Origin: Candidatus Poribacteria bacterium
Lineage (GTDB): Bacteria > Poribacteria > WGA-4E > WGA-3G
Reading direction: 5' to 3'
DNA length: 64,000 nucleotides
Assembly (NCBI GenBank): GCA_022827625.1
Contig: JAJEIE010000024.1
Span: 40,227-104,226 of the forward strand
Of the stretch, positions 3,803 through 16,963 are shown piece by piece. Position 1 is the first letter of the stretch. Every line of letters begins with the position of its first letter. Made by a program: the position numbers and the translations under genes. The notes beneath the pieces are model-generated. The model was given only the letters and a program-made list of their open reading frames with translations. It made no database searches and was not told the DNA's origin.

Positions 3803-5551
3803 CTACCTCTGTCCCAGCACTTTCAGAAATTCTGGATCCTTTTGGACATCCGAAAACTCAGGAGTCTCAACGAAAGTCGGGTAGTATGTATCCTGATAAT
3901 TATAAGGCTCTACCATATAATCGTTCTGAGCAACCTTCAAGTGCTGTAAAGTTTTTTCTCGATCCTTCTCAGAAGCCCAGATGCTCACGGCAAGCATGAA
4001 GTGGCCATAAGGGTTGTTATTTCCCAAATCGACGGCGATTTGTAGCATCCGCGTTGCTTCGCTATACTTTTTCGACCATACCAGACAACAACCGACATCG
4101 TGAGCAGCCCAAATAAGGTTGTAGGTATTGACCGGATAACGGGCATGCTGTTTTTCTACTTCCCCTTCGATAAACGTCCTTGTATCTGTCCAGACTTGAT
4201 CGAAACGATCCCAATCTTCCTGTTTTCTATACAACAGAAGCCGATTGGTTCTTACAGCTAACCAGAATCTAAAATAATTCCGCCAACCGGGTTCACCGTT
4301 GGCACGTTCCAATTTTTCTATTTCGAGAAGTGCCACATCTAACCGGTCATTGCTTCGTAATATTTCCGCTCCCATTTGTAGAAAATCGCAACGACTGTAC
4401 TGACTCACTTTAGGGTTCTCCAAGCGTTCAGATGCCTCATTATAGAGTTGAATCCAGTCATCAATACGACCTTCCGCTGCCCAACATCCAGCGCTGGTTA
4501 GATTGGAAATGATCCTTAACACATATTTTTCTGACTGCTTGCATGCCCAACGGTAAAGACGGGTCTGCTCCGCAATAGCTTCTCGATTTCTCTCAAGAAA
4601 AGCGAGACTATTGACTAACGTGTTATGCGCCCAGAAACGCTCCGTATTATCTGAGGTCTCATCTATATACCTACGGAGTAGAGATATCCGTTTTTCCATG
4701 CCGAGTTTGCCCATATACGGGTATATCTCATCAACGGCAAGATGTGCCAATTCGGGTGTGGTTTTACCCTTAAGGGCAGCTTCAATCTCGTTGCAGGCTT
4801 CTGTAAGAATATCCGATCGTGATGCAGGATCAGATTTCACATTCTCCATGAATGCAGTGAACCTGCTACGAATTTCTTCTAATTGATTCATGATGTTCTC
4901 CTTGAGAGTATCTGATAGTTCTAAATGACCAAAGAATTCTTGATTCAAGAATTCTGAATCTGTTTGCAGACGCTTTCGCGCCCGTTGGAGTCGGCTCGTA
5001 ATTGTATTCACCGACACTCCCATGAATTGGCTGATCTCTTTCGTTGACATTTCGTCAAGATAGTAGCGTGTTACAACTGCGCGTTCATTCTCTGGCAATT
5101 TTTCCAAAAGTCTTTTCACAAGTTCATGGTAACGCTCCGTCCTCTCTGTCATCCGCTGTTCCGATATATGATGTGTATAAGAGGATTCCTCGATTTCTTT
5201 AACGGGTGTGTCCTCCAGTGATTGCATCACAGACTTTTGGCTTCGCATCCAATCAATACAAAGCCGATCTGCGATGACATGGAGCCATCCGGCAAATTGA
5301 GTGGGATTCTTGAGGGTCGGAAGTTTTTTGTATGCCCTAAGGAAGGTGTCTTGCATAATATCTTCCGCATGGTGAAAATCTTGGGTCTTCCGCCATGCCA
5401 GGGCATGAATGCTCTTTTGGTACTTTTCGACTAAGATACCAAACGCAGCGTCATCACCCGATAAGATTTTGCGGATTAGTTGAACATCGTCTTCTCTTTT
5501 CACGAAACTTTCTCCTAATGAACAGATTCGATTATGTTTGCCCTCATTCAA
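3803..5551 (-). CDS. ECF-type sigma-70 factor with a C-terminal helical-repeat extension of about 380 aa
   Basis: The N-terminal ~200 aa carry sigma70 region 2 (DIMQDTFLRAYKKLPTL...FAGWLHVIADRLCIDWMR) and region 4 (LPENERAVVTRYYLDEMSTKEISQFMGVSVNTITSRLQRARKRL). The remainder looks all-helical and TPR-like, and has no TM segment. Confidence 0.75.
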   Translation of the reverse strand: MNEGKHNRICSLGESFVKREDDVQLIRKILSGDDAAFGILVEKYQKSIHALAWRKTQDFHHAEDIMQDTFLRAYKKLPTLKNPTQFAGWLHVIADRLCIDWMRSQKSVMQSLEDTPVKEIEESSYTHHISEQRMTERTERYHELVKRLLEKLPENERAVVTRYYLDEMSTKEISQFMGVSVNTITSRLQRARKRLQTDSEFLNQEFFGHLELSDTLKENIMNQLEEIRSRFTAFMENVKSDPASRSDILTEACNEIEAALKGKTTPELAHLAVDEIYPYMGKLGMEKRISLLRRYIDETSDNTERFWAHNTLVNSLAFLERNREAIAEQTRLYRWACKQSEKYVLRIISNLTSAGCWAAEGRIDDWIQLYNEASERLENPKVSQYSRCDFLQMGAEILRSNDRLDVALLEIEKLERANGEPGWRNYFRFWLAVRTNRLLLYRKQEDWDRFDQVWTDTRTFIEGEVEKQHARYPVNTYNLIWAAHDVGCCLVWSKKYSEATRMLQIAVDLGNNNPYGHFMLAVSIWASEKDREKTLQHLKVAQNDYMVEPYNYQDTYYPTFVETPEFSDVQKDPEFLKVLGQR

Positions 5552-5758: not shown

Positions 5759-6100
5759 CTAAACTGACAATCCAGCAACAGCAGCGTCTTCACTGTCGAA
5801 ATGTTCAAATAGATTCACCACACGACTCAGAACAATGAGATTTCTGATATGTTTTCCGACATTGATGACCCCTACGCGTCCGTGTTTCCGTGATGCAGCA
5901 GCGTATGCTTCCATCAAGGTCCCAAGACCTGAACTATCAATCCGATTGACCTGCTCGAAATTGATGAGGATACGTGGCGTATCAGAAGCCTCTATTTGTG
6001 GCAAGATGACTTTTCGTAAGTCTGATGCGGAACGTCCGCCTACCTTTCCAGTGGGTTTTAAAATCGAGATGCCATTTTGCTGGCGAATTTGCGTTGTCAT
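5759..6100 (-). CDS. STAS-domain anti-sigma-factor antagonist (SpoIIAA/RsbV-like)
   Basis: 113 aa. Contains NFEQVNRIDSSGLGTLMEAY with the conserved phosphorylatable Ser context (DSSGLG). Confidence 0.8.
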   Translation of the reverse strand: MTTQIRQQNGISILKPTGKVGGRSASDLRKVILPQIEASDTPRILINFEQVNRIDSSGLGTLMEAYAAASRKHGRVGVINVGKHIRNLIVLSRVVNLFEHFDSEDAAVAGLSV

Positions 6101-6216: not shown

Positions 6217-6411
6217 TTAACGCAAATCCAAGTCCGCGTCCGTTTTGAGGAGTCTGTGGAATGTTTCAAAAGACGCTCCCCAAAGTTTCTCCTCTGTATA
6301 AGGATCGCCCGGTTCAGCTGGCACGACAGTCTCATCACAACCGAAAGCAAGGTAACCGATGCCGAAGAGTAACAAACAGACGAGGAATAGATTAATCATT
6401 AGGAAACGCAT
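6217..6411 (-). CDS. small putative lipoprotein (64 aa)
   Basis: The internal ATG at 6411 is preceded by GGAGAAAAAAA. The product MRFLMINLFLVCLLLFGIGYLAFGC has a signal peptide with a lipobox-like AFGC. The longer 100-aa ORF-track start lacks an RBS. Confidence 0.45.
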   Translation of the reverse strand: MRFLMINLFLVCLLLFGIGYLAFGCDETVVPAEPGDPYTEEKLWGASFETFHRLLKTDADLDLR

Positions 6412-6686: not shown

Positions 6687-6718
6687 CGTTACTACAAACG
6701 AGTTCCAAAACAGTTGCA
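6687..6718 (-). promoter_or_regulatory. conserved 32-nt motif, copy A (putative promoter/operator)
   Basis: The minus strand reads TGCAACTGTTTTGGAACTCGTTTGTAGTAACG. It matches 16656..16687 at 29 of 32 positions. Confidence 0.35.
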
Positions 6719-6760
6719 TTTTTTTCATTTAAGTTGAACTGGCGTTTTATAAAAATTGAT

Positions 6761-6830: not shown

Positions 6831-8042
6831 TTAATTTCGCGCCGTGCTGGCGTAAAATTCCGAGATACTTTCAACGCCGCGCAGCAGCATTTCATCACTC
6901 AAGTGAAACGCCTCGCGTATTTTCAGTTTTTGCTTATCTTCTATTGAAGCAAGCAACCGTTGATTTGGTACAACATGGACGGAGTCAGCCTTTTCTCGAA
7001 GTTCCTGCAGTCCCTGCTCTGCTTTTTCGGCACGGCGTTGCCCTTCAAAATTGAACGGACACGTCACAACGCCTACCGCTAAAGCCCCTTGCTCTTGAGC
7101 AAGAGAGGCAATCAGGGGTGCAGCGCCTCCGCCCGTTCCGCCACCCATACCGGCTACAACGAAAACGATGTCGGCATCGGCAACGACGTTATGGAGTTTC
7201 TCTCGATCCTCCTCGGCAGCCCTTTTGCCCATCTCTGGATCCGCTCCGGAATACCCCGGAGTGGTGTTAGCACCAATCAGCACGGGTGTTGCGTCATTGT
7301 GTTTGTCAAGTGCTTGCTGGTCTATATTCACTGCGTAAAATTCAATATCTGTCAAACCAGATTCAATCATCCATTTGACGGCGTTACCGCCCGCACTACC
7401 GACACCCACAACCTTGATTTTGGGGTGGAGACGCTTGGATTCTTCACGTTTAGATGACATAGTTCTCCCTCTTTCAGGTTCGACACCGAACGCCTTGCGT
7501 AGGAGTTCACGTGTCTGTCTTAACCGTGTTTTAACTGTACCTATCGCTAATCCGAGTTCAGCGTGGATCTCTTTGATACTCCACGATTCCAGATAGTATA
7601 GCACCGCGACACGTCGCACTTTATCTGGCAGGTGATGCACTGCTTCTTTTGCGTCTTCGAGGCGTTCGATTTCTCGAAAATATCCCACCGCGTCCTGATC
7701 AATGCGATGGGTTAGATCGGCATAACTGGACGGAATTTCGCCGCTTGCGTGGCGTGTGGGCGTATAGTACCGCTTACAAGCGTTGTCCGCAATGCGGTGC
7801 AACCAGCCACTAAAACTTTCGACGCGTCGGAGTTGGCTGATGTTTTCCCAGACGGCTCTCCAGATGTCCATAAGGATTTCTTCAGCGTCGCGGCGTTGTC
7901 TCGAATTTGCGATAACGACTTTCCAGATGCGAGGACTATAACGCGACATCAGTTCTGTAAATGCCAACTCATCACTTGCTTGGGCAAGCCGAATGAGTTC
8001 TTCATCTGTCAGATTAGTGTGCGTTAATAGATCGTATCGCAT
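6831..8042 (-). CDS. ECF-type sigma-70 factor fused to an FtsZ N-terminal GTPase domain (lacking the T7 loop and C-terminal subdomain)
   Basis: Residues 1-186 carry sigma70 region 2 ([16 protein letters not shown]...[17 protein letters not shown]) and region 4 ([44 protein letters not shown]). Residues 208-396 align colinearly with the FtsZ at 46202. Shared segments include [44 protein letters not shown] and VVPNQRL. There is no stop codon between the two parts. Confidence 0.85.
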   Translation of the reverse strand: [403 protein letters not shown]

Positions 8043-8639: not shown

Positions 8640-9512
8640 TTAGTCAACATCTCCTGCCTCTAAGTATTTTAGCGGGCTTTCGATGATGTAGTCCCCCGAC
8701 TCCTCAAGAAACTGCTGCACCAGATAGACATGCCCGACACCGATAATCAGAAGGATTCGATCATCGGTAGACTCAGTGATGCGCGTCAGATTTACAAAGA
8801 TTTTGAGATTCCGTGCGTACCAAACATGGGCGAGCCAATCTGCCCCCGGATATTGGTCGCCAAGTCCAATACGGGCATCATGTATGTATGCTCGCTGGCT
8901 CGCGCGGGTCCTTACAGGGTGATTGAAGCGTATATACTTGTCAATTATCGATTCATATTTCTCAATTTTTCCTGAATCTGTCGGATCTCCGAAACGGTGA
9001 TCCTCAGGGGATCCGAAAAGGTGCTCCTGATTGTGAACTTTTGCAAACTCGCTTCGGTTTATCAAGTGATCCTTAATTTTTTCAAGGATCGGGTTTCGCT
9101 CTGGCCAATAATCTACACAATATATTGTTGAATGTCCAAACGCTTTTGCCAACCTATAGCCGATCTGATCCCCCTCGTACCGCTCAAGTTCGTATGTCCC
9201 ATTCAAATAACCTTGATACCTTTTGTTTTCAGAGGCGCAACGGCTTGGATCCAATTCAACCGCTATTTTGGTAGGTTTAAACGCTTTAAGGTGTTCAAAC
9301 ACTTGTTTAATCTCGCGCTGGCGTTTGGGCACAAGGACATCATCCGCAAAGTGCCAACTACCAAGAATCATAATTGTCGGTTTTTTCATCATTTGCTTAC
9401 TTTCTCCTGTAGATACGTCTGTCTGATTCTCGCTTGTGGCTGTGCCGGCAATAGATAGCACGGCGGCGAGTAAGGTTATGAAATAGAGTTTGCATTTCAC
9501 TAAGATTCTCAT
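8640..9512 (-). CDS. DUF5694-like protein (TraB/GumN/erythromycin-esterase-like fold), secreted; paralog 1
   Basis: I moved the start to ATG 9512, which has a GGAGAA RBS, giving MRILVKCKLYFITLLAAVLS as signal peptide. Family-like pattern: MILGSWHF...VLVPKRQREIKQVFEHLKAFKPTKIAVE...YQGYLNGTYELERYEGDQIGYRLAK...LLIIGVGHVY. Confidence 0.6.
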   Translation of the reverse strand: MRILVKCKLYFITLLAAVLSIAGTATSENQTDVSTGESKQMMKKPTIMILGSWHFADDVLVPKRQREIKQVFEHLKAFKPTKIAVELDPSRCASENKRYQGYLNGTYELERYEGDQIGYRLAKAFGHSTIYCVDYWPERNPILEKIKDHLINRSEFAKVHNQEHLFGSPEDHRFGDPTDSGKIEKYESIIDKYIRFNHPVRTRASQRAYIHDARIGLGDQYPGADWLAHVWYARNLKIFVNLTRITESTDDRILLIIGVGHVYLVQQFLEESGDYIIESPLKYLEAGDVD

Positions 9513-9689
9513 AAAATTTTCTCCTATCTGTAGATTAAACCCTTCCAAAAAGGATCATCAAATTTCAGCAACTCTGGTGGAGGGTAAAAACAAATGACCA
9601 CTTCCGCTGTAGGCACGGTTTCCCAACCGCGCCGATCGCACTGTTCCATTAATTCCAAACTTCACCTTAAAATAATGGGTTTAAAGTGT

Positions 9690-10619
9690 CTACTTCTCCG
9701 CCGCGTCCAAGTATTTCAGCGGACTTTCAACGATGTAGTCCCCGGACTCCTCAAGAAACTGCTGCACCAGATAGACATGCCCAGCACCAATAATCAGCAG
9801 GATCCGTTCGTCGGCAGATTCGGTGATGCGGGTGAGATTGACGTAAATCTTTAGATTCCGATCGTACCAAGAGTGAGCGACCCAATTAGCACCTGGATAT
9901 TGGTCGCCGTTCCCTATACGCGCGATCCACCGTATATATCGTTGATGGGACACACTTCTACCTTCAGGCTCGTTGTGGCGTATGTACATGTCAATGATCG
10001 GTTCGTATTTCTCAGGCTCAATCCAGGTTACGCCACTTTCATCTTGTATAACTTTTCCATCAGTTGTAGGCGGAGGTGGAAGAAGATGTTCCTGATTATG
10101 TGTCTTCGCGAACTTTTGATAGTCTATTAAATCCCAATCAAAACCATCTGGAAAAAAAGGGTGATTGTCTGGCCATGGCCAATAATCAACGCCATACACC
10201 TTTGGATGTTCCATCTGTTTTGCTAATCGAAATCCAATCTGGTTACCTTCCCCGCGTTTGAGTTCGTACGTTCCTTTGAGATAGGCTTGATAGTTTGCAT
10301 TGATCTCGGCATCAAATCTTTCATCTGCCTCAAGGGCTATCTTGGTAGGTTGAAATGCCTTAAGCTGTGTGACGAGTTGCTCAATTTCCTGTTGGCGTTT
10401 AGGGGCGAGGACATCATCCATTTTGTAGTTGAAGGCATCCATTCCCGGATTTGATAAGTGTCCGCTGCCAAGAATCATGACTGTCGGTTTTTGTACCATT
10501 TGCGGAGTTTCTCCTGTAGAGGAATTTGTCTGACCATCGCTTACAGCTATACCTACCGTAAATAACATACCAGCAAGTAGTACCGCTGTATAGGTTTTGC
10601 AATTTGCTAAGACTTTCAT
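9690..10619 (-). CDS. DUF5694-like protein, secreted; paralog 2
   Basis: Start moved to ATG 10619 (MKVLANCKTYTAVLLAGMLF). The C-terminal ~60 aa are nearly identical to paralog 1 (NLKIYVNLTRITESADERILLIIGAGHVYLVQQFLEESGDYIVESPLKYL). Confidence 0.6.
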   Translation of the reverse strand: MKVLANCKTYTAVLLAGMLFTVGIAVSDGQTNSSTGETPQMVQKPTVMILGSGHLSNPGMDAFNYKMDDVLAPKRQQEIEQLVTQLKAFQPTKIALEADERFDAEINANYQAYLKGTYELKRGEGNQIGFRLAKQMEHPKVYGVDYWPWPDNHPFFPDGFDWDLIDYQKFAKTHNQEHLLPPPPTTDGKVIQDESGVTWIEPEKYEPIIDMYIRHNEPEGRSVSHQRYIRWIARIGNGDQYPGANWVAHSWYDRNLKIYVNLTRITESADERILLIIGAGHVYLVQQFLEESGDYIVESPLKYLDAAEK

Positions 10620-10696
10620 AAAACGTTCTCCTATCTCTAAGGCGGTTGATAGCCCCAAAAAGGGGTTACCAAATTTCCAACAATTAGGAAAGCACG

Positions 10697-11491
10697 TTAT
10701 CGAGTTCCTGTTTTGCCTGAATCCAAGTATTGCAACGGGCTTTCTATATTATAGACCTCGGAGTCTTCCACAATCTGTTTAAGGAATCCTAAGTGCCCAG
10801 CACCGATGATTAGCAAAATACGCTCATCTTCTGATTCCGTAATTCGGGTGAGATTGACAAAAGTTTTGAGGTTCCGATTATACCAAAAATGTGCGACCCA
10901 ATTCGCCCCCGGGTACTCGTCTTGAAGACCAATTCGGGCAATCCGTAAGTAGTCGCGGAGGTTTGTGCGGATCTCTTCATCTTGGTTCTCCCGTATATAC
11001 ATGTCAACTATGGGTTCGTATTTTTCAGGCTCAATCCAGATTCTGCCATCTTCATCCTGCGTCATTTTTCCAGTAGGTGGCGGTCCCAGAAGATGTTCCT
11101 GATCGTTCGTCTCTGCAAACGCCCCGTAATCTGTCCAATGATCCTCCCGATCCTCCCGAACGATTGGATCATCGCGCAAATAATCTACACAGTGGACCTT
11201 TGGATGTCCCATCTGTTTCGCTAATCGGAATCCAATCTGGTGGATTTCATGGGGTTTAAGTTGGAAGTTGTCCTTCAGATAGGCATCATATTCGTTCTGA
11301 AGTTCAGCCTCCCAATGTGTATCAACTTCGACGGCTATCTTCGTCGGTTTGAAACGGGCAAGTTGTTCAACGAGCTGCTGAAGTTCGGCTTGGCGTTTGG
11401 GTGCAAGGACATCGTCCATTCTATAATTGATTCGATCTGCTCCCCAATTTGCCAAATGTCCACTACCCAGAATCATAAGTGTCGGTTTCAT
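10697..11491 (-). CDS. DUF5694-like protein; paralog 3 (no signal peptide)
   Basis: Begins directly at the conserved MKPTLMILGSGHL core, with a GGAGG RBS upstream. It has the same motif order as paralogs 1 and 2. Confidence 0.6.
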   Translation of the reverse strand: MKPTLMILGSGHLANWGADRINYRMDDVLAPKRQAELQQLVEQLARFKPTKIAVEVDTHWEAELQNEYDAYLKDNFQLKPHEIHQIGFRLAKQMGHPKVHCVDYLRDDPIVREDREDHWTDYGAFAETNDQEHLLGPPPTGKMTQDEDGRIWIEPEKYEPIVDMYIRENQDEEIRTNLRDYLRIARIGLQDEYPGANWVAHFWYNRNLKTFVNLTRITESEDERILLIIGAGHLGFLKQIVEDSEVYNIESPLQYLDSGKTGTR

Positions 11492-11535: not shown

Positions 11536-11982
11536 TCATTCATCTAACTCTACCCTAAGAGGAACTTTAAAGGTATTCGGATCTAAGCCTTGTGCTTTAA
11601 GATCGTCAATTGTCTCTTGTAATTCCTCACCCGTCTCTTCCAATTCGTGGATGTATTCTCTATCTTCATCGTTATGTCGAGCGATTTCGAGTTCTATCTC
11701 ATTGAGTCGCTGGAGGTCTCTGAGTAAGCCTTCATCTACGCCAACAACCCGCGGGATAATCTCTAACCACTCTTCCATAAGAGGATGTTCACCTTTGGCA
11801 AGAAGATAAAAGGCATTTTTGAGTGATTTCAATGATGCCTCTGGATCAGCGTCTTTAAGATCAAGATACTTCTGCATCATTTCCGCCGCTTTTTCCTGTC
11901 GTTTTTCTATTGGCAGTTGCAAGTAACGCTCTATAGATGCGAGATCTTCTGTCAGGGCTGCCTGCTCTGAATCACTTAGCAC
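11536..11982 (-). CDS. acidic coiled-coil hypothetical protein; probable lipoprotein whose signal peptide is frameshifted
   Basis: 148-aa ORF from a GTG. The same frame upstream reads FAFGFLGCGSDEQ (lipobox). A signal-peptide-like MRYTIVIGISLSLL starts at ATG 12083 in another frame. Confidence 0.5.
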   Translation of the reverse strand: MLSDSEQAALTEDLASIERYLQLPIEKRQEKAAEMMQKYLDLKDADPEASLKSLKNAFYLLAKGEHPLMEEWLEIIPRVVGVDEGLLRDLQRLNEIELEIARHNDEDREYIHELEETGEELQETIDDLKAQGLDPNTFKVPLRVELDE

Positions 11983-12154: not shown

Positions 12155-14725
12155 TTAAAACATGCGAGACCACTTAAAATCGACTTGATACCCGCGTCCC
12201 TCTTCGAGTGCTTTCGCAAGGTTCACTCTGAAGGGACCCCCTTGGAAGCCTATACCGAGATTAACCTTGGGTTGTATCTGCTCTATGTCTTCCAAGCGAT
12301 ACCACACTTGTCCTACATCTACGAAGGGGATAAGGAATGCCCCGTCTCCTAAACTGTGAGCATACTCCAAGTTGAAGAGGAAGCCGTGGTTGCCCGCAAA
12401 TTCATAAAGCGAGTAGCCGCGGAGTGTTCCGATACCACCGATAACGAATTGACGTTGATAGGGCAGCTGCCCCGTTGCAGTCCCGACCTTTAAACGGGCA
12501 TCAACTCTATCGTCTCCGATGGGATAGTAGTGGCGGAAATGTGCCTGGAAGCGCGTAAAATCAAAATCGGAACCGATTGCAGGACTGGTGTGCTCTACAA
12601 GAAACGTGTTATACCATTCGACTGCATTTTCGCGGTTCTTAAAGTTTTCTCGGTTCTCAAAGTCGTATTTTACGTCAGTCCATCCGCGATTGTCAAAGTC
12701 GTATTTTAAGGAGATACTCCGCATACTGCCAGGGTGTATCGGCGAATTTTGCCGTCCCGCTAATTCGGGGTGTGCTGACCAATTTCTGAGATGGAAGTCC
12801 ATCGTCCGCTGCAGACTGTTGTGTTCTTCCCAAAGTACGAACGCTCCCAACGAATGCTTGATATTTGGAGATTGCCATTGAAGTGCTGTCACCCCACCCT
12901 CTCTGAGATAGTAGTCTTGGAAATCAGTGCCCCACAATGCCCGAACAAACTGCTCACTATCACTAAGCAAGAGGTCTCTGTCCCTGACGGAGGTTAACCG
13001 ATGGATTTGCGCGCTGTATATCAGGTGTGAATCTCCACCTATTGTTACACCGCCACCCGCTCGGTAATTCGTGCTTCGGCTTGAGAGCCCGTAACTTATT
13101 GTGCCGAACCAAAAGGGATCCACTGACCTATCCCTTTGTGTCCGGGAACCGGCTTCGTGAATATCAATTGAGGCAGTCGTTTCGTACCCGTTTGGCCGAA
13201 TCGTTGAACCCGATCCCGTAAAAAAGAGTGGATCGGAATGCCACCGTTTGCCGATTTCAAGTCCACCACCAATCCGCAGCCCATCAACCGATGTGAGGCT
13301 GCTGGCACTCACAGGACGGAAGAGGTCCTCACTTGATGAATTCACTACTTTAGGACGGATTGGAGTTGGTGTCAGAGAGACATTGTTGGTGCTTCCTAAA
13401 ACAGGTTCTGTTGGTTCACTGGGTTCAATAGGTTCGCTGGGTTCAGCGAGTTCTGTTGGTTCACTGGGTTCAACAGGTTCTAAGGTGTCCAACGAACCTT
13501 GCGGATCTGACAGTTTTGGCGGCAATACATGTAACCAGTGTCCGTCATTTTTATAAGTGTCATCAACACCTATATTTGACCACCAAGAACGGATACCCGT
13601 CCGGACCTGACCGCGGTCAAAGTTAATCCCCATCCGAATCGGTTCGGTTGTGTCTGGGTAATCCAACATTTCCCACGGAATTTCCATTTCCACAACCCAG
13701 CCAGTCGCATTGACGTTAGCGGCGACGTTCCACTGATCCATCCATTCGGTTTTGTTTGCCTCCTGTTTGGGAGAGCGGACGAATTTTTTGCCAATCGGGT
13801 TTGCCATGAAGAAGGTGCGATTAGAAAATCTGTGTGTGTGGAAAGGATCGATGCTGAAGGAGACCCAATCCTCTGTCATGTCAAACCTGACATGATCTTG
13901 AATTTGCCGGGCAATGATCTTATCCGGTTCGCTATCATAGAGATGCCATGCGACGTAGATGGCTTCGTTTGTGTAAATCAGTTTAACAACTGTATCATCC
14001 TCGACCGGATTTTCACTACGCGCATTTGTGAAGTTATTCGCTTCGGGGGCAATTTTCCAACACGCATCGTTAAGGGTTCCATCAATAATTGGAACATTTT
14101 CGACTTTTACAGCGAGTAACTCTCTCTGGACCGTGTCCGCAATCGATTTCGACTGCGCCTTCAGCGCATCACCGACATTGATATCCATCGCACCAAAGTT
14201 GCTCAGATTGCTAAGCAAGTCCTCGATCCGTTCTGGTGCGATTTCTCCGACGATGTTGACAAAGGTAGCTTCTCCAGATGTTTCAGGGATCACGATGATG
14301 AAAATCCCATACACCATATCTTCATCAAAAAGTAGACTAATTTCTACAACTTCACTCTCTTCCTTGATTTTGACCAGAACCTCCCAATTATCTTCCTTGA
14401 GCCTCCGCTGAAAGTAGCCGACCAATTCCTGTTCGTCGATGGTGAGTCTATCATAGGTACGAACATAAATGCCGTCCAGCATCCGAATTAACTCGGCAAT
14501 TTCCGGTGTGTTGCTCACCGATTTCGTAACCAAGTTGATAAGTTTTGCCGTTAGATTAACCTCAACTTTTGCTTCAAGCGAGGCTGGAAAATCAAAGATG
14601 ATAAGTCCTTTTCTTTCAGTTTCGTCCGCTCTGTCCTGTTGTGCAACTGCCGACTGCATCGGTATTAGCGATAAAACTAAAAACGATAGTATAAACAGCA
14701 GGACACAGTGCTTTTGCAGTTTCAT
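12155..14725 (-). CDS. outer-membrane protein: N-terminal DUF4252-like domain + CBM9/DOMON-like domain + C-terminal Omp85/DUF5916-like beta-barrel
   Basis: Signal peptide present. The DUF4252-like block (EISLLFDEDMVYGIFIIVIPETSGEATFVNIVGEIAPERIEDL) resembles the upstream gene. A CBM9-like block follows (IDGTLNDACWKIAPEANNFTN...GWVVEMEIPWEMLDY). The barrel motif is FVIGGIGTLRGYSLYEF, and the protein ends in a terminal aromatic residue (KWSRMF). Confidence 0.7.
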   Translation of the reverse strand: MKLQKHCVLLFILSFLVLSLIPMQSAVAQQDRADETERKGLIIFDFPASLEAKVEVNLTAKLINLVTKSVSNTPEIAELIRMLDGIYVRTYDRLTIDEQELVGYFQRRLKEDNWEVLVKIKEESEVVEISLLFDEDMVYGIFIIVIPETSGEATFVNIVGEIAPERIEDLLSNLSNFGAMDINVGDALKAQSKSIADTVQRELLAVKVENVPIIDGTLNDACWKIAPEANNFTNARSENPVEDDTVVKLIYTNEAIYVAWHLYDSEPDKIIARQIQDHVRFDMTEDWVSFSIDPFHTHRFSNRTFFMANPIGKKFVRSPKQEANKTEWMDQWNVAANVNATGWVVEMEIPWEMLDYPDTTEPIRMGINFDRGQVRTGIRSWWSNIGVDDTYKNDGHWLHVLPPKLSDPQGSLDTLEPVEPSEPTELAEPSEPIEPSEPTEPVLGSTNNVSLTPTPIRPKVVNSSSEDLFRPVSASSLTSVDGLRIGGGLEIGKRWHSDPLFFTGSGSTIRPNGYETTASIDIHEAGSRTQRDRSVDPFWFGTISYGLSSRSTNYRAGGGVTIGGDSHLIYSAQIHRLTSVRDRDLLLSDSEQFVRALWGTDFQDYYLREGGVTALQWQSPNIKHSLGAFVLWEEHNSLQRTMDFHLRNWSAHPELAGRQNSPIHPGSMRSISLKYDFDNRGWTDVKYDFENRENFKNRENAVEWYNTFLVEHTSPAIGSDFDFTRFQAHFRHYYPIGDDRVDARLKVGTATGQLPYQRQFVIGGIGTLRGYSLYEFAGNHGFLFNLEYAHSLGDGAFLIPFVDVGQVWYRLEDIEQIQPKVNLGIGFQGGPFRVNLAKALEEGRGYQVDFKWSRMF

Positions 14726-15417
14726 TTGTTCTCCTCCTTGTTTGAGTGATCGTTTGTTTCAGTTTCTGATTTCGGTGCTTCGTCAGGTTTTTCCGAGTTG
14801 ACCTCCGCGGGCCACCATTGGGAATTAGAAGGGTTTACTAAATCACGAAGCGTCTTGGACATCCCCTCTTCCGAACTGGATGCCATAAGGCGTCCAAATA
14901 GAGCACCAAGCTTCTGGAAGTCGATTTCCCCATAGATATTCACAAAACTCCAGCCTTCATTGTCGATAATCGTGGCGAAAATACCGTGCAGTATCCCCGG
15001 TTCTTCCGCATAGAGCAGACTGAGATTGAATTTGTCCTTAATTTTGACGATATGTTCCCACTTTTCGTCTGCAAGTATACCTTGGTAATGGTCTATGATC
15101 TGGTTGAGATCTTCCGTCTCTTTATCGTAGGCTCGGACAGCCGCGCCTTTTAGCATGTTGGCATACGCCGTATAGGCTGTCATGTCTGTGGGTGGATCTC
15201 CATCAGATTTTGGAATGCTCGCCATACCGAAATTGATAAGCAGATTGAAGAATGTTTTATCCAAGTTAATTACCATTTTGGGAGCAGATGTATCTGGCAG
15301 GTCCATCGCTACTTTACCGCGGATGGTCTCTGTTTTTTCTGTGCCGTTGGTCAGAGCATCCGCGTTTGTCAAGACACAGCTGACTATTAAAAGTGCTGTA
15401 AGGGCGAATTTTCTCAT
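14722..15417 (-). CDS. DUF4252 domain protein, secreted
   Basis: Signal peptide, then FNLSLLYAEEPGILHGIFATIIDNEGWSFVNIYGEIDFQKLGALFG. ATGA overlaps link it to both neighbours. Confidence 0.7.
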   Translation of the reverse strand: MRKFALTALLIVSCVLTNADALTNGTEKTETIRGKVAMDLPDTSAPKMVINLDKTFFNLLINFGMASIPKSDGDPPTDMTAYTAYANMLKGAAVRAYDKETEDLNQIIDHYQGILADEKWEHIVKIKDKFNLSLLYAEEPGILHGIFATIIDNEGWSFVNIYGEIDFQKLGALFGRLMASSSEEGMSKTLRDLVNPSNSQWWPAEVNSEKPDEAPKSETETNDHSNKEENK

Positions 15418-16097
15418 TGGGTTTTTCCTTTTTGTTCTGAGTTTTGGGTACCTTCTGTATTCGGAGCATTTTCGGATTCCCGGTTAAGACTATCCAAACT
15501 CCGGTGAATTGCTGATGAAATGTTCATTTTCTTTTTTAATGCCCTGCGCGAAGCTTGTTCAATCTGAACAAACGGACGCTGTGAAGCTTTATTAATCTGG
15601 GCATTTGGCAGTTTCTCGTTGACGACAACGTTGGTTCTCTCCACGGCGTAGTTCAACTTGCTGAGGGCATAATTCAAGTCCTGAGCAGCTTGCATGATTT
15701 TTTGATGCTGTTGATACTGGTAAATACCAAATGCGACAATTCCAAACAGACATGCCAACGCACCTGCGCGAACAAGTGAGAAAGTTAAATTATCCCAGAA
15801 TGTAGATAATTGAAATAACCGATGCCACCATCTTTCACCCTTATCCGGGTGGGCGCGGACATACGCCGCAACCGCATCGAAGACGGCTGGCGGCGGTTCT
15901 GGTCTTGGAAGCTCGTGTAATGCTTCGCCGATTGTTTGGGCAAAGTGAACTTCATCTTGACACGTTGGGCAGGACGTAACGTGTGCTGCTATTCTCGCGT
16001 GTGTCTCTGCATCCAACTCGTCAGCGAGATATGCCTCTAAGGTGTCCTGAACTTCCAGACAAGCTGAATCTTGAGGGCGTGAAAATTGATGATTCAT
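15414..16097 (-). CDS. anti-sigma factor (zf-HC2, single-pass membrane)
   Basis: HxxxCxxC motif (HVTSCPTCQDE), one TM segment (LVRAGALACLFGIVAFGIY), and an ATGA overlap with the sigma gene. Confidence 0.7.
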   Translation of the reverse strand: MNHQFSRPQDSACLEVQDTLEAYLADELDAETHARIAAHVTSCPTCQDEVHFAQTIGEALHELPRPEPPPAVFDAVAAYVRAHPDKGERWWHRLFQLSTFWDNLTFSLVRAGALACLFGIVAFGIYQYQQHQKIMQAAQDLNYALSKLNYAVERTNVVVNEKLPNAQINKASQRPFVQIEQASRRALKKKMNISSAIHRSLDSLNRESENAPNTEGTQNSEQKGKTQ

Positions 16098-16627
16098 CCG
16101 TTATTTCTCCAGTAGGGACGCAAGAGTTCCCGTAACTTCTTACGGGCACGAAATGCGGTTGATTTCACAGTACCTTCGGGTTGCTCTAAAACCGCTGCAA
16201 TCTCTTTGAAACTCATGCCTTCCAGTTCCCGCATAATTATCACTGAACGCATTTCTGGCGGCAATTTTTTGATCGCACAGTGTACCGACGCTTTAAGTTC
16301 CCGCTTGATGACAATTTCGTCAGGCGACGGGTTTGACTGGTGCGTGTGTCTATGCAGTAGCGTTTCGAGTTCAGTTTCGTCTCCTTCTGTTAGCGGTTCC
16401 TGAAATTTCTGCCGCTTTAGCAGATTGAAACAGAGATTCTGCGCACACTTTAGCAACCATGAACGCACGGTTTTCAGACGTAATTTGCGTCGGTGTTCCC
16501 ACGCTTTTATGAACGTCTCTTGTGTTATATCCTCAGCATCTTCTCGGTTTCTGAGTAGATATAGAGCATGCTGATAAATCTGAGCCTTGTGTTTATGGAC
16601 AAGTTCAAGGAATTGATCCTCTGTCAT
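16094..16627 (-). CDS. ECF sigma-70 factor
   Basis: 177 aa. Region 2 is EDITQETFIKAWEH...VRSWLLKCAQNLCFNLLKRQ. Region 4 is LPPEMRSVIIMRELEGMSFKEIAAVLEQPEGTVKSTAFRARKKL. Confidence 0.88.
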   Translation of the reverse strand: MTEDQFLELVHKHKAQIYQHALYLLRNREDAEDITQETFIKAWEHRRKLRLKTVRSWLLKCAQNLCFNLLKRQKFQEPLTEGDETELETLLHRHTHQSNPSPDEIVIKRELKASVHCAIKKLPPEMRSVIIMRELEGMSFKEIAAVLEQPEGTVKSTAFRARKKLRELLRPYWRNNG

Positions 16628-16655: not shown

Positions 16656-16687
16656 CGTTACTACAAACGAGTTGAAAAAAAGTTGCA
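16656..16687 (-). promoter_or_regulatory. conserved 32-nt motif, copy B (putative promoter of the ECF operon)
   Basis: The minus strand reads TGCAACTTTTTTTCAACTCGTTTGTAGTAACG. It ends 29 nt upstream of the sigma start codon and matches 6687..6718 at 29 of 32 positions. Confidence 0.4.
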
Positions 16688-16963
16688 CTTTTCTGAAAAT
16701 TACCGCATAGATACAGGTGTGACGGGAGGTGTAACCTTTGTCAACCGAAATCGTATTTATAAAAATATGGGCTGGCCTGCTTATTAAGAGGCAGTTTTGA
16801 GTCCGGAAGGTTGCATAATTTTCGAGAAATGAGAGCGACCTGAATTTTCACCGCAAAAACGGCGAAACCTCTTGAAGGCGGGGTAGATTAGTTTTTTGTA
16901 AGCGGCTGTAGGGACGGAAATCTATTGATGAAGATTCCTTCCCTACCTCGGTGAGTTCTGATG

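Follow-up and report, generated by a model that had tools for sequence, protein, structure and literature searches.

In the RpoE-RseA-RseB system of Escherichia coli and in AlgU-MucA-MucB of Pseudomonas, a sigma factor, a single-pass anti-sigma factor and an exported periplasmic protein are encoded in this order, and RseB or MucB binds the periplasmic domain of the anti-sigma factor and gates proteolysis on envelope signals. In FecA-FecR-FecI and in the SusC-like transducers of Bacteroides, it is an outer-membrane (OM) barrel with an N-terminal periplasmic extension that adjoins the genes for the anti-sigma factor and the extracytoplasmic function (ECF) sigma factor. A further arrangement is known from Porphyromonas gingivalis (PG0214-PG0218 and PG0985-PG0987), where the sigma gene is followed by those for a small membrane protein and for DUF4252, and where transcriptomes show each cluster to be co-regulated as a unit. 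Here, we analyze a stretch of 64,000 nucleotides (nt) from an uncultivated, sponge-associated member of Candidatus Poribacteria (assembly GCA_022827625.1, contig JAJEIE010000024.1, positions 40,227 to 104,226), hereafter the window. Four genes of its minus strand form an operon for an ECF sigma factor, an anti-sigma factor, a free DUF4252 protein and, last, a protein of 856 amino acids (aa) in which DUF4252 is fused to a CBM9-like domain and to an Omp85 β-barrel. The initial annotation of this DNA, made from the sequence alone, had described the sigma/anti-sigma/DUF4252 cassette as a recurrent but uncharacterized module. This is borne out by the Porphyromonas cassettes, and in the literature that we searched DUF4252 is named only in gene tables and never itself studied; the same search found nothing joining Poribacteria with ECF sigma factors.

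How does the Poribacteria operon compare with these systems? Its sigma factor belongs to the same broad ECF family as those of the Porphyromonas cassettes, its best NCBIfam match being NF058625 (PG0214/GFO_1088-family ECF sigma). With 121 bits for a cutoff of 130, it is, judging from this score, related to the family but not a filed member of it. However, the two come from different phyla, and the DUF4252 of Porphyromonas is a small free protein for which no fusion to Omp85 or CBM9 has been reported. From RpoE-RseA-RseB the operon differs in several respects: the anti-sigma factor is of the zf-HC2 zinc-finger (ZAS) type and not of the RseA type, NCBIfam giving only weak and sub-threshold matches; no gene for a site-1 or site-2 protease lies in the operon; an OM barrel is attached to the third component; and the model of DUF4252 does not resemble RseB or LolA and lacks the LolA-like two-domain fold of RseB and MucB. 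As for the FecA and SusC-like systems, a ligand-binding element is found on both sides, a putative one here, with the CBM9-like domain, versus glycan in Bacteroides, but a 16-strand Omp85 barrel replaces the 22-strand TonB-dependent receptor, the fusion has no Pfam match to TonB_dep_Rec, Plug or STN, and the anti-sigma factor is not FecR-like. With the Omp85 superfamily (TamA, BamA, TpsB/FhaC, PlpD and the 'noNterm' proteins) the fusion shares the 16-strand barrel, the L6 and β-13 motifs and a C-terminal aromatic residue. On the other hand, it has no POTRA domain, is encoded inside a sigma/anti-sigma operon and lies outside the 10 catalogued Omp85 subfamilies, which comprise patatin, metalloprotease, WD40-like, lipid-anchored and noNterm forms, with no mention of a carbohydrate-binding or sigma-linked one (PMC4104836). 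Finally, the OM proteins of the CBM9-DUF5916 type ('carbohydrate binding family 9 domain-containing protein') also carry an N-terminal CBM9 domain followed by a large β-rich C-terminal region, but this region is Omp85 in the fusion and DUF5916 proteins have no DUF4252.

A comparison of orthologous loci, defined by the same upstream zinc-dehydrogenase gene, a 177-aa sigma factor and a zf-HC2 anti-sigma factor of ~220 aa, refined our interpretation. In all of these loci, the product of the gene directly 3' of the anti-sigma gene is exported and has DUF4252 as its N-terminal domain; this gene is usually ATGA-coupled. DUF4252-CBM9-Omp85 stands alone after the anti-sigma factor in L002, L007, L009-L012 and L014, as well as in L008, where the contig ends within the sigma gene. 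A free DUF4252 gene precedes the fusion in the window and in L001, L003, L004, L013 and L015. L016 and L017 retain only a DUF4252-CBM9 protein (424 aa), with a relic of the barrel 3.6 kb downstream; in L026 a free DUF4252 gene is followed by a DUF4252::DUF5694 fusion; and L027 and L028 carry two free DUF4252 genes. Among the species-representative loci with a complete sigma-to-fusion cassette, 8 of 14 have no free DUF4252 gene, and there the fusion adjoins the anti-sigma gene. Since the free gene is often absent, the barrel is lost in L016/L017 and DUF5694 serves as partner in L026, the conserved element is the DUF4252 that adjoins the anti-sigma factor. As judged from these sequences, the constant core of the system is the sigma factor, the anti-sigma factor and a DUF4252 right after the latter, the barrel being one of several interchangeable attachments. 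The barrel relic itself is still readable in L016 (10883-10966) as 28 in-frame codons of the Omp85 L6 region, TLRGYSLYEFVGNHGFLFNLEY, which other genes, one of them for a WD40 protein, separate from the intact DUF4252-CBM9 open reading frame (ORF).

Full-length homologs of the 856-aa protein, at 50-95% identity, fall into more than 90 clusters, of which all those with a name come from Candidatus Poribacteria, and the fusion loci found in species-representative genomes are Poribacteria in 18 cases out of 18. According to these counts, the operon is confined to Candidatus Poribacteria, where its conservation extends to the overlaps. Among 1.84 billion library representatives, the three-domain architecture is essentially that of P0059 alone (827 aa). 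In the same library, the barrel is common, at 30-48% identity, to other architectures, namely DUF4252-Omp85 without CBM9 (P0123, P0126, P0140 and P0141), DUF4252 with a POTRA-like element and Omp85 (P0134) and CBM9-POTRA-Omp85 (P0165, P0169 and P0224); of the CBM9-less DUF4252-Omp85 types, only P0126 has the name of Poribacteria attached. A second and more distant operon type (L019, L040, L041) encodes a sigma factor, a zf-HC2 anti-sigma factor, two to three free DUF4252 proteins and a DUF4252-Omp85 protein without CBM9. Further DUF4252-Omp85 paralogs are encoded at the PA14/DUF4159 loci of Poribacteria, close to genes for sigma factors with large C-terminal extensions.

The trio of sigma factor, ZAS anti-sigma factor and DUF4252 is invariant, the anti-sigma factor has a conserved periplasmic tail, and the fusion partners of DUF4252 are freely exchanged. 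Taken together, these observations suggest that DUF4252 is the periplasmic interface of a switch and that the C-terminal modules are exchangeable parts used for anchoring or sensing. We propose, as a plausible but still tentative model built by analogy with RseB and MucB, a 'tethered third component', i.e. an autoregulated switch made of an ECF sigma factor and a membrane anti-sigma factor, with a periplasmic DUF4252 as constant third part. DUF4252 would act on the part of the anti-sigma factor that extends into the periplasm, either protecting this tail or controlling access to it, as RseB does for RseA. One DUF4252 copy would be tethered to the OM, the CBM9-like domain and the 65-residue linker connecting it to the 16-strand Omp85 barrel, and the state of the OM or of the periplasm would alter the contact between DUF4252 and the anti-sigma factor. 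Candidate signals would be the occupancy of CBM9 by an envelope or imported glycan, which is the sensing role that we infer for this domain, or a failure of barrel assembly. Once released, the sigma factor would drive transcription of the operon that encodes it and of a small number of further TGCAAC-N16-TGTAGT promoters. The free DUF4252 would be an optional paralogous partner, which may pair or compete with the tethered copy.

A linear chain had initially been suggested, from an OM sensor through the free DUF4252 to the anti-sigma factor and the sigma factor. Part of this idea survives, since DUF4252 does belong to a predicted OM protein of a sigma/anti-sigma operon, as had been claimed, and the CBM9-less operon type repeats this logic. 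The linear relay is however not general, in view of the loci without a free DUF4252. Our model overlaps the earlier one but drops the free protein as a necessary relay and needs no barrel.

The sigma factor matches Sigma70_r2 (E 5.9e-15) and Sigma70_r4_2 (E 1.2e-18) in Pfam as well as TIGR02937 (96.7 bits, cutoff 42.9), and it consists of regions sigma-2 and sigma-4 only, its 177 aa falling in the range of ECF (group 4) sigma factors (~170-200 aa). The anti-sigma factor matches zf-HC2 (34.1 bits, gathering score 22.2, E 2.9e-8) and contains the H-x3-C-x2-C signature within its anti-sigma domain; it would bind and inhibit its cognate sigma factor. Across 18 orthologs, C13 and H39-x3-C43-x2-C46 are invariant. 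The periplasmic tail has ~100 residues, of which the first ~85 are well conserved in these orthologs. Its conservation extends to every locus variant, which is what a constant partner would lead one to expect, and the tail is thus a candidate docking surface.

As for DUF4252 (PF14060, gathering score 23.9), the free protein matches the profile with 33.2 bits and the fusion with 39.9 bits (residues 55-170, E 5.6e-10), and both matches span nearly all of its 125 positions, which confirms the presence of the domain at the N-terminus of the 856-aa protein. Between the free and the fused domain, identity amounts to 30% in an alignment of 179 residues (E 8e-18), and the two similar blocks noticed in the initial annotation are found at residue 128 of the fusion and residue 130 of the free protein. 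Orthologs of the free protein form ~100 clusters, which are from Poribacteria wherever the source names them. Its AlphaFold model (62 sequences) displays a confident core at residues 31-179 with block-mean pLDDT values mostly of 71-94, dropping below 60 in the loop at ~61-80, and a fold that runs beta, alpha, alpha, beta, alpha, four beta strands, alpha. A sequence search for homologs of solved structure returned none. Both the free protein and the fusion possess an N-terminal signal peptide. The lipoprotein status of the free protein is ambiguous: Cys14 is conserved, but in most orthologs it lies inside the hydrophobic core of the signal peptide and is followed by a signal peptidase I site of the GHA/Q type.

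The C-terminal part of the fusion had been described as an 'Omp85/DUF5916-like' barrel ending in Phe. The Omp85 half of this proposal stands, the barrel being TamA-like. Pfam Omp85 matches residues 679-812 with 38.3 bits (gathering score 24), whereas the NCBIfam profile Omp85_fam is matched far under its cutoff (E 2.9e-12), as is that of BamA. In a model of low confidence, residues 469-839 form 16 strands, and Foldseek aligned the modeled barrel with TamA, BamA and Sam50 (best E 1.9e-8; 1e-8 to 1e-6 for TamA and BamA), with a TM-score of 0.60 to the barrel-only TamA structure 4n74. Omp85 proteins carry two signature motifs, of which (V/I)RG(Y/F) is located at the L6 tip and (F/G)xDxG in the wall of the barrel (PMC4490367). 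In the family profile alignment, GGIGTLRGYS is paired with GGDQSVRGYD of TamA and PFVDIGQVW with TFVDQGNAF, and both motifs (LRGY and the FVDVG site) are invariant in 43 homologs. The stretch FVIGGIGTLRGYSLYEF, which had been singled out initially and occupies residues 760-776, corresponds to the L6 region because its LRGY aligns to VRGY of TamA, and the protein does end in Phe. A DUF5916 barrel (PF19313) was ruled out, as Pfam gave no match at E <= 1 and the DUF5916 paralogs share the CBM9 domain only. No match to POTRA, POTRA_1 or POTRA_2 was obtained in the fusion, even at E <= 1; we also considered a hidden POTRA in residues 404-535 and rejected it, for this region gave no match at this threshold and is disordered or of low confidence in the model. 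Without POTRA, the fusion is not a member of the BamA, TamA, TpsB or PlpD groups. Its architecture is new among Omp85 proteins, with DUF4252, CBM9 and a linker in place of POTRA and a gene located inside a sigma/anti-sigma operon. A 16-strand Omp85 barrel puts the N-terminus on the periplasmic side, and the barrel-less homologs (DUF4252-CBM9, DUF4252-DUF5694 and free DUF4252 proteins) have a signal peptide only; the N-terminal domains of the fusion are therefore most likely periplasmic.

Several points weigh against our model. The lid-lock motifs of the barrel are strictly conserved, which suggests that it may act as a transporter or an insertase and not merely as an anchor. The CBM9-like domain is a putative ligand binder whose ligand is entirely hypothetical. 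The linker is unconserved in length and sequence, so that a precise role as 'molecular ruler' is unlikely, and confidence in the AlphaFold model of the whole fusion (43 sequences; pLDDT 57.2, pTM 0.40) is so low that the packing of the domains cannot be judged. Finally, co-transcription fits an effector equally well, since the sigma-E regulon of E. coli, like ECF envelope-stress regulons more broadly, includes the Omp85 protein BamA (PMC1312014). One could then assume that the fusion is a regulated effector, namely an insertase or translocase of the TamA/BamA type that the sigma factor induces under envelope stress, with a chaperone-like DUF4252 devoid of any role at the anti-sigma factor and a CBM9 that binds glycans or lipids. 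The invariance of both motifs is indeed what one would expect of an active Omp85 protein. Furthermore, Sam50 is functional without POTRA and 'noNterm' Omp85 proteins exist (PMC4104836, PMC11358297), and the DUF4252-Omp85 paralogs of the PA14/DUF4159 loci have no adjoining membrane anti-sigma gene. It is however not expected of an effector that DUF4252 should come right after the anti-sigma factor, start-stop coupled, in every variant while the 'catalytic' barrel is swapped or lost, nor that the Bacteroidota cassettes should keep DUF4252 with the sigma and anti-sigma factors in the absence of any barrel. We thus consider this explanation rather unlikely, although it deserves attention.

The middle of the fusion bears on another hypothesis. 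The CBM9/DOMON-like domain announced by the initial annotation is supported by Pfam CBM9_1 (PF06452, 31.4 bits, gathering score 23.4) and by Foldseek, which superimposed it on the Thermotoga CBM9 structure 1i82 (TM-score 0.66, E 6e-7), in agreement with a β-sandwich of the CBM9 type. It is followed by a linker whose 65 residues include 12 Pro, 10 Glu and 10 Ser, which varies in length and sequence among orthologs and which is part of a region (387-467) modeled as disordered (pLDDT < 50). Could the protein export itself? In a scheme of type Vd, like that of PlpD, the barrel would pass DUF4252-CBM9 to the surface through the Pro-rich linker, and CBM9 would bind glycans of the sponge host or of the environment, the whole being an adhesion or capture module under ECF control. 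Poribacteria are sponge symbionts rich in carbohydrate-active genes, and CBM9 is classically an extracellular carbohydrate-binding module, as in 1i82. The order passenger, linker and Omp85 barrel resembles that of PlpD (PMC4104836), and relatives ordered CBM9-POTRA-Omp85 match patatin-POTRA-barrel. PlpD-type export however uses POTRA, for which the fusion gave no Pfam match up to E = 1; the solved barrels of BamA and TamA are closed to the outside (PMC4104836); and the homologs with DUF4252 or DUF4252-CBM9, which have a signal peptide but no barrel, indicate that the domain is evidently periplasmic. This makes self-export improbable.

The CBM9 domain of the fusion and that of the CBM9-DUF5916 proteins of Poribacteria share 57% identity, which suggests a domain exchange within the lineage. 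Soluble ZAS anti-sigma factors such as RsrA sense thiol oxidation directly. With the H-x3-C-x2-C signature and the upstream Cys invariant, domain shuffling rife at the locus and a CBM9 seemingly borrowed from neighboring CBM9-DUF5916 genes, one could imagine that the fusion is a lineage-specific accident that happens to place DUF4252 at the OM as a passive anchor, sigma control going wholly through a cytoplasmic redox-type ZAS domain; we regard this as the least probable explanation, because more than 90 clusters, some with as little as 50% identity, preserve the three-domain architecture and each of its domains has invariant motifs, so that it is under selection, because a CBM9-less DUF4252-Omp85 operon type exists independently, and because a purely cytoplasmic sensor would not need a conserved periplasmic tail on the anti-sigma factor.

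The positions initially assigned to the four genes all match ORFs, and their three junctions, claimed to be ATGA start/stop overlaps, do read ATGA. Purine-rich stretches resembling Shine-Dalgarno sequences (GGAGA, AAGGAAA and GGAGGAG) are located a few bases 5' of each junction. In a crude gene call over the whole window, 4-nt overlaps are possible for 7 of 43 co-directional neighbor pairs, three of the seven belonging to this operon; three successive ATGA overlaps are a clear operon signature, yet not an exotic one. Among the Poribacteria loci, the sigma/anti-sigma junction is ATGA in 14 out of 14 and the junction between the anti-sigma gene and the next one in 13 out of 14. At the DUF4252/fusion junction, ATGA is found in the window and in three of five related two-gene loci, the other two having a 12-nt gap. 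The overlaps and their conservation support co-transcription, and the genes are probably coupled in translation. The initial statement went further, to co-translation in fixed stoichiometry, which overlaps do not imply. On the minus strand, no intrinsic terminator was predicted 3' of the fusion gene. An acidic 148-aa ORF lies 172 nt 3' of this gene; a counterpart (84% identity) was found among the fetched loci in L003 only, where it is 1.2 kb 3' of the fusion.

Upstream of the operon, a conserved block of ~35 nt, AAAAGTGCAACTTTTTTGCAACTCGTTTGTAGTAACGTTAAC, lies ~30 nt 5' of the sigma start codon. Wherever a locus includes this region, the motif TGCAAC-N16-TGTAGT is nearly invariant and precedes the sigma gene or, after rearrangement, the operon, although the encoded proteins are no more than 58-80% identical. 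In form it resembles ECF promoters such as TGAAAC-N16-CGTA of SigW. A second copy in the window precedes a gene for an exported protein of 64-65 aa and a STAS-domain gene; the latter is of the anti-sigma antagonist type. In a metagenome scan, the motif was found before sigma operons in L030 and L034, and before the same small-protein/STAS pair in three independent cases (L029, L031 and L038). In L016/L017 it precedes both the rearranged operon and a WD40 gene. These occurrences are consistent with an autoregulated ECF promoter, the inferred function of the motif, and with a small regulon, of which the small-protein/STAS pair is likely a member unless it is part of a sigma cascade. In two species, L007 (4654-4748) and L009, the motif is tandemly duplicated 5' of the sigma gene, ~68 nt apart, the second copy retaining GTGCAAC...TTTGTAGT without the following AACGTTAAC.

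Table 1. Positions of the operon, its protein domains and neighboring features in the window.
Feature	Position	Strand	Size or residues	Remarks
ECF sigma gene	16094-16627	minus	177 aa ORF	
Anti-sigma gene	15414-16097	minus	227 aa ORF	
Free DUF4252 gene	14722-15417	minus	231 aa ORF	
DUF4252-CBM9-Omp85 fusion gene	12155-14725	minus	856 aa ORF	
Promoter-like element GTGCAAC-N16-TGTAGT	16660-16688	minus		Full conserved block AAAAGTGCAACTTTTTTTCAACTCGTTTGTAGTAACGTTAAC, ending ~30 nt 5' of the sigma start codon
Anti-sigma zinc-finger (ZAS) domain	15957-16061	minus	13-47	zf-HC2; predicted cytoplasmic
Anti-sigma transmembrane helix	15720-15791	minus	103-126	Single hydrophobic segment
Anti-sigma periplasmic tail	15417-15719	minus	127-227	Predicted
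Free DUF4252 protein, parts	within 14722-15417	minus	~1-21; 50-172	Signal peptide; DUF4252; then disordered acidic tail
Fusion, signal peptide	14639-14725	minus	1-29	Ends AVA/QQ; read from sequence, hydrophobic segment 2-29
Fusion, DUF4252 domain	14216-14563	minus	55-170	PF14060
Fusion, CBM9-like (DOMON-type) domain	13547-14086	minus	214-393	Pfam CBM9_1
Fusion, Pro/Glu/Ser-rich linker	13322-13516	minus	404-468	EPVEPSEPTELAEPSEPIEPSEPTEP...
Fusion, Omp85-superfamily β-barrel	12158-13321	minus	~469-856	~16 strands; C-terminal Phe
Fusion, LRGY (L6 motif)	12413-12424	minus	768-771	
Fusion, FVDVG (β-13 motif)	12311-12325	minus	801-805	
Acidic ORF	11536-11982	minus	148 aa	No Pfam match
Three tandem DUF5694 paralogs	8640-11491	minus	302, 322, 264 aa	Directly 3' of operon
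Sigma-FtsZ fusion	6831-8042	minus	403 aa	Sigma70_r2, r4_2, C-terminal Tubulin
Second promoter-like copy ATGCAACTGTTTTGGAACTCGTTTGTAGT	6691-6719	minus		Shares exact 18-mer AACTCGTTTGTAGTAACG with operon copy
Small exported-protein gene	~6217-6411	minus	64-65 aa	MRFLMINLFLVCLLLFGIGYLAFG...
STAS-domain gene	5759-6100	minus		
ECF sigma with long extension	3803-5551	minus	582 aa	C-terminal extension without Pfam match

Other genes of the window are worth mentioning. One of the three DUF5694 paralogs (9690-10658) was searched and gave a Pfam match of E 5e-48. Since DUF5694 is fused to DUF4252 in the slot of the barrel fusion in L026, it is probably tied functionally to the system of the operon. By eye, two GxxH-like motifs can be made out in the paralogs, reminiscent of the TraB/GumN/TIKI superfamily. 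Further on, a 403-aa protein joins an ECF sigma factor to a C-terminal FtsZ/tubulin GTPase (Pfam Tubulin, E 1.3e-40). This protein is also found in L002 (8788-9903), and further Poribacteria genomes have conserved it, often with a gene for a CBM9-DUF5916 OM protein after it; we know of no described sigma-FtsZ fusion. With a 582-aa ECF sigma factor, whose C-terminal extension is helical and of ~380 residues, three ECF sigma genes are present within ~13 kb. As for the PA14/DUF4159 loci, a repeated module was observed in L020, L022 and L024, which consists of PA14, an Omp85-like barrel of ~764-773 aa, PA14, a second barrel of ~780-830 aa and DUF4159. The second barrel matches Pfam DUF4252 and Omp85 in L020 and L022, and no Pfam match is on record for it in L024. 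The module lies 3' of giant ECF sigma fusions, with BNR/sortilin in L022 and with a C-type lectin in L024 (Poribacteria genomes GCA_022821495.1 and GCA_022823125.1, respectively), and reflects a lineage-specific expansion of barrels and of sigma fusion proteins.

Taken individually, the parts of the operon are all of known kinds: an ECF sigma factor, a ZAS anti-sigma factor, DUF4252, CBM9 and Omp85. What is new, besides the Omp85 architecture of the fusion, is the series of domain swaps, from which a likely role of DUF4252 can be assigned. The Poribacteria loci form a natural 'Rosetta-stone' series in this respect, and they point to DUF4252 as a periplasmic interface. This may matter beyond this lineage, as sigma/anti-sigma/DUF4252 cassettes are common in Bacteroidota and, in the pathogen P. 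gingivalis, respond to oxidative, nitrosative and iron stress. A bolder hypothesis, which we find attractive but for the moment doubtful, would be that DUF4252 is an unrecognized and widespread periplasmic partner of ZAS membrane anti-sigma factors in Bacteroidota and Poribacteria, wired in the latter to Omp85 as a TonB-independent trans-envelope device that would report the assembly or ligand state of Omp85/CBM9 to an ECF sigma factor. If the tether does signal, it would represent a second way, besides the TonB-dependent transducers, to couple an OM barrel to an ECF sigma factor.

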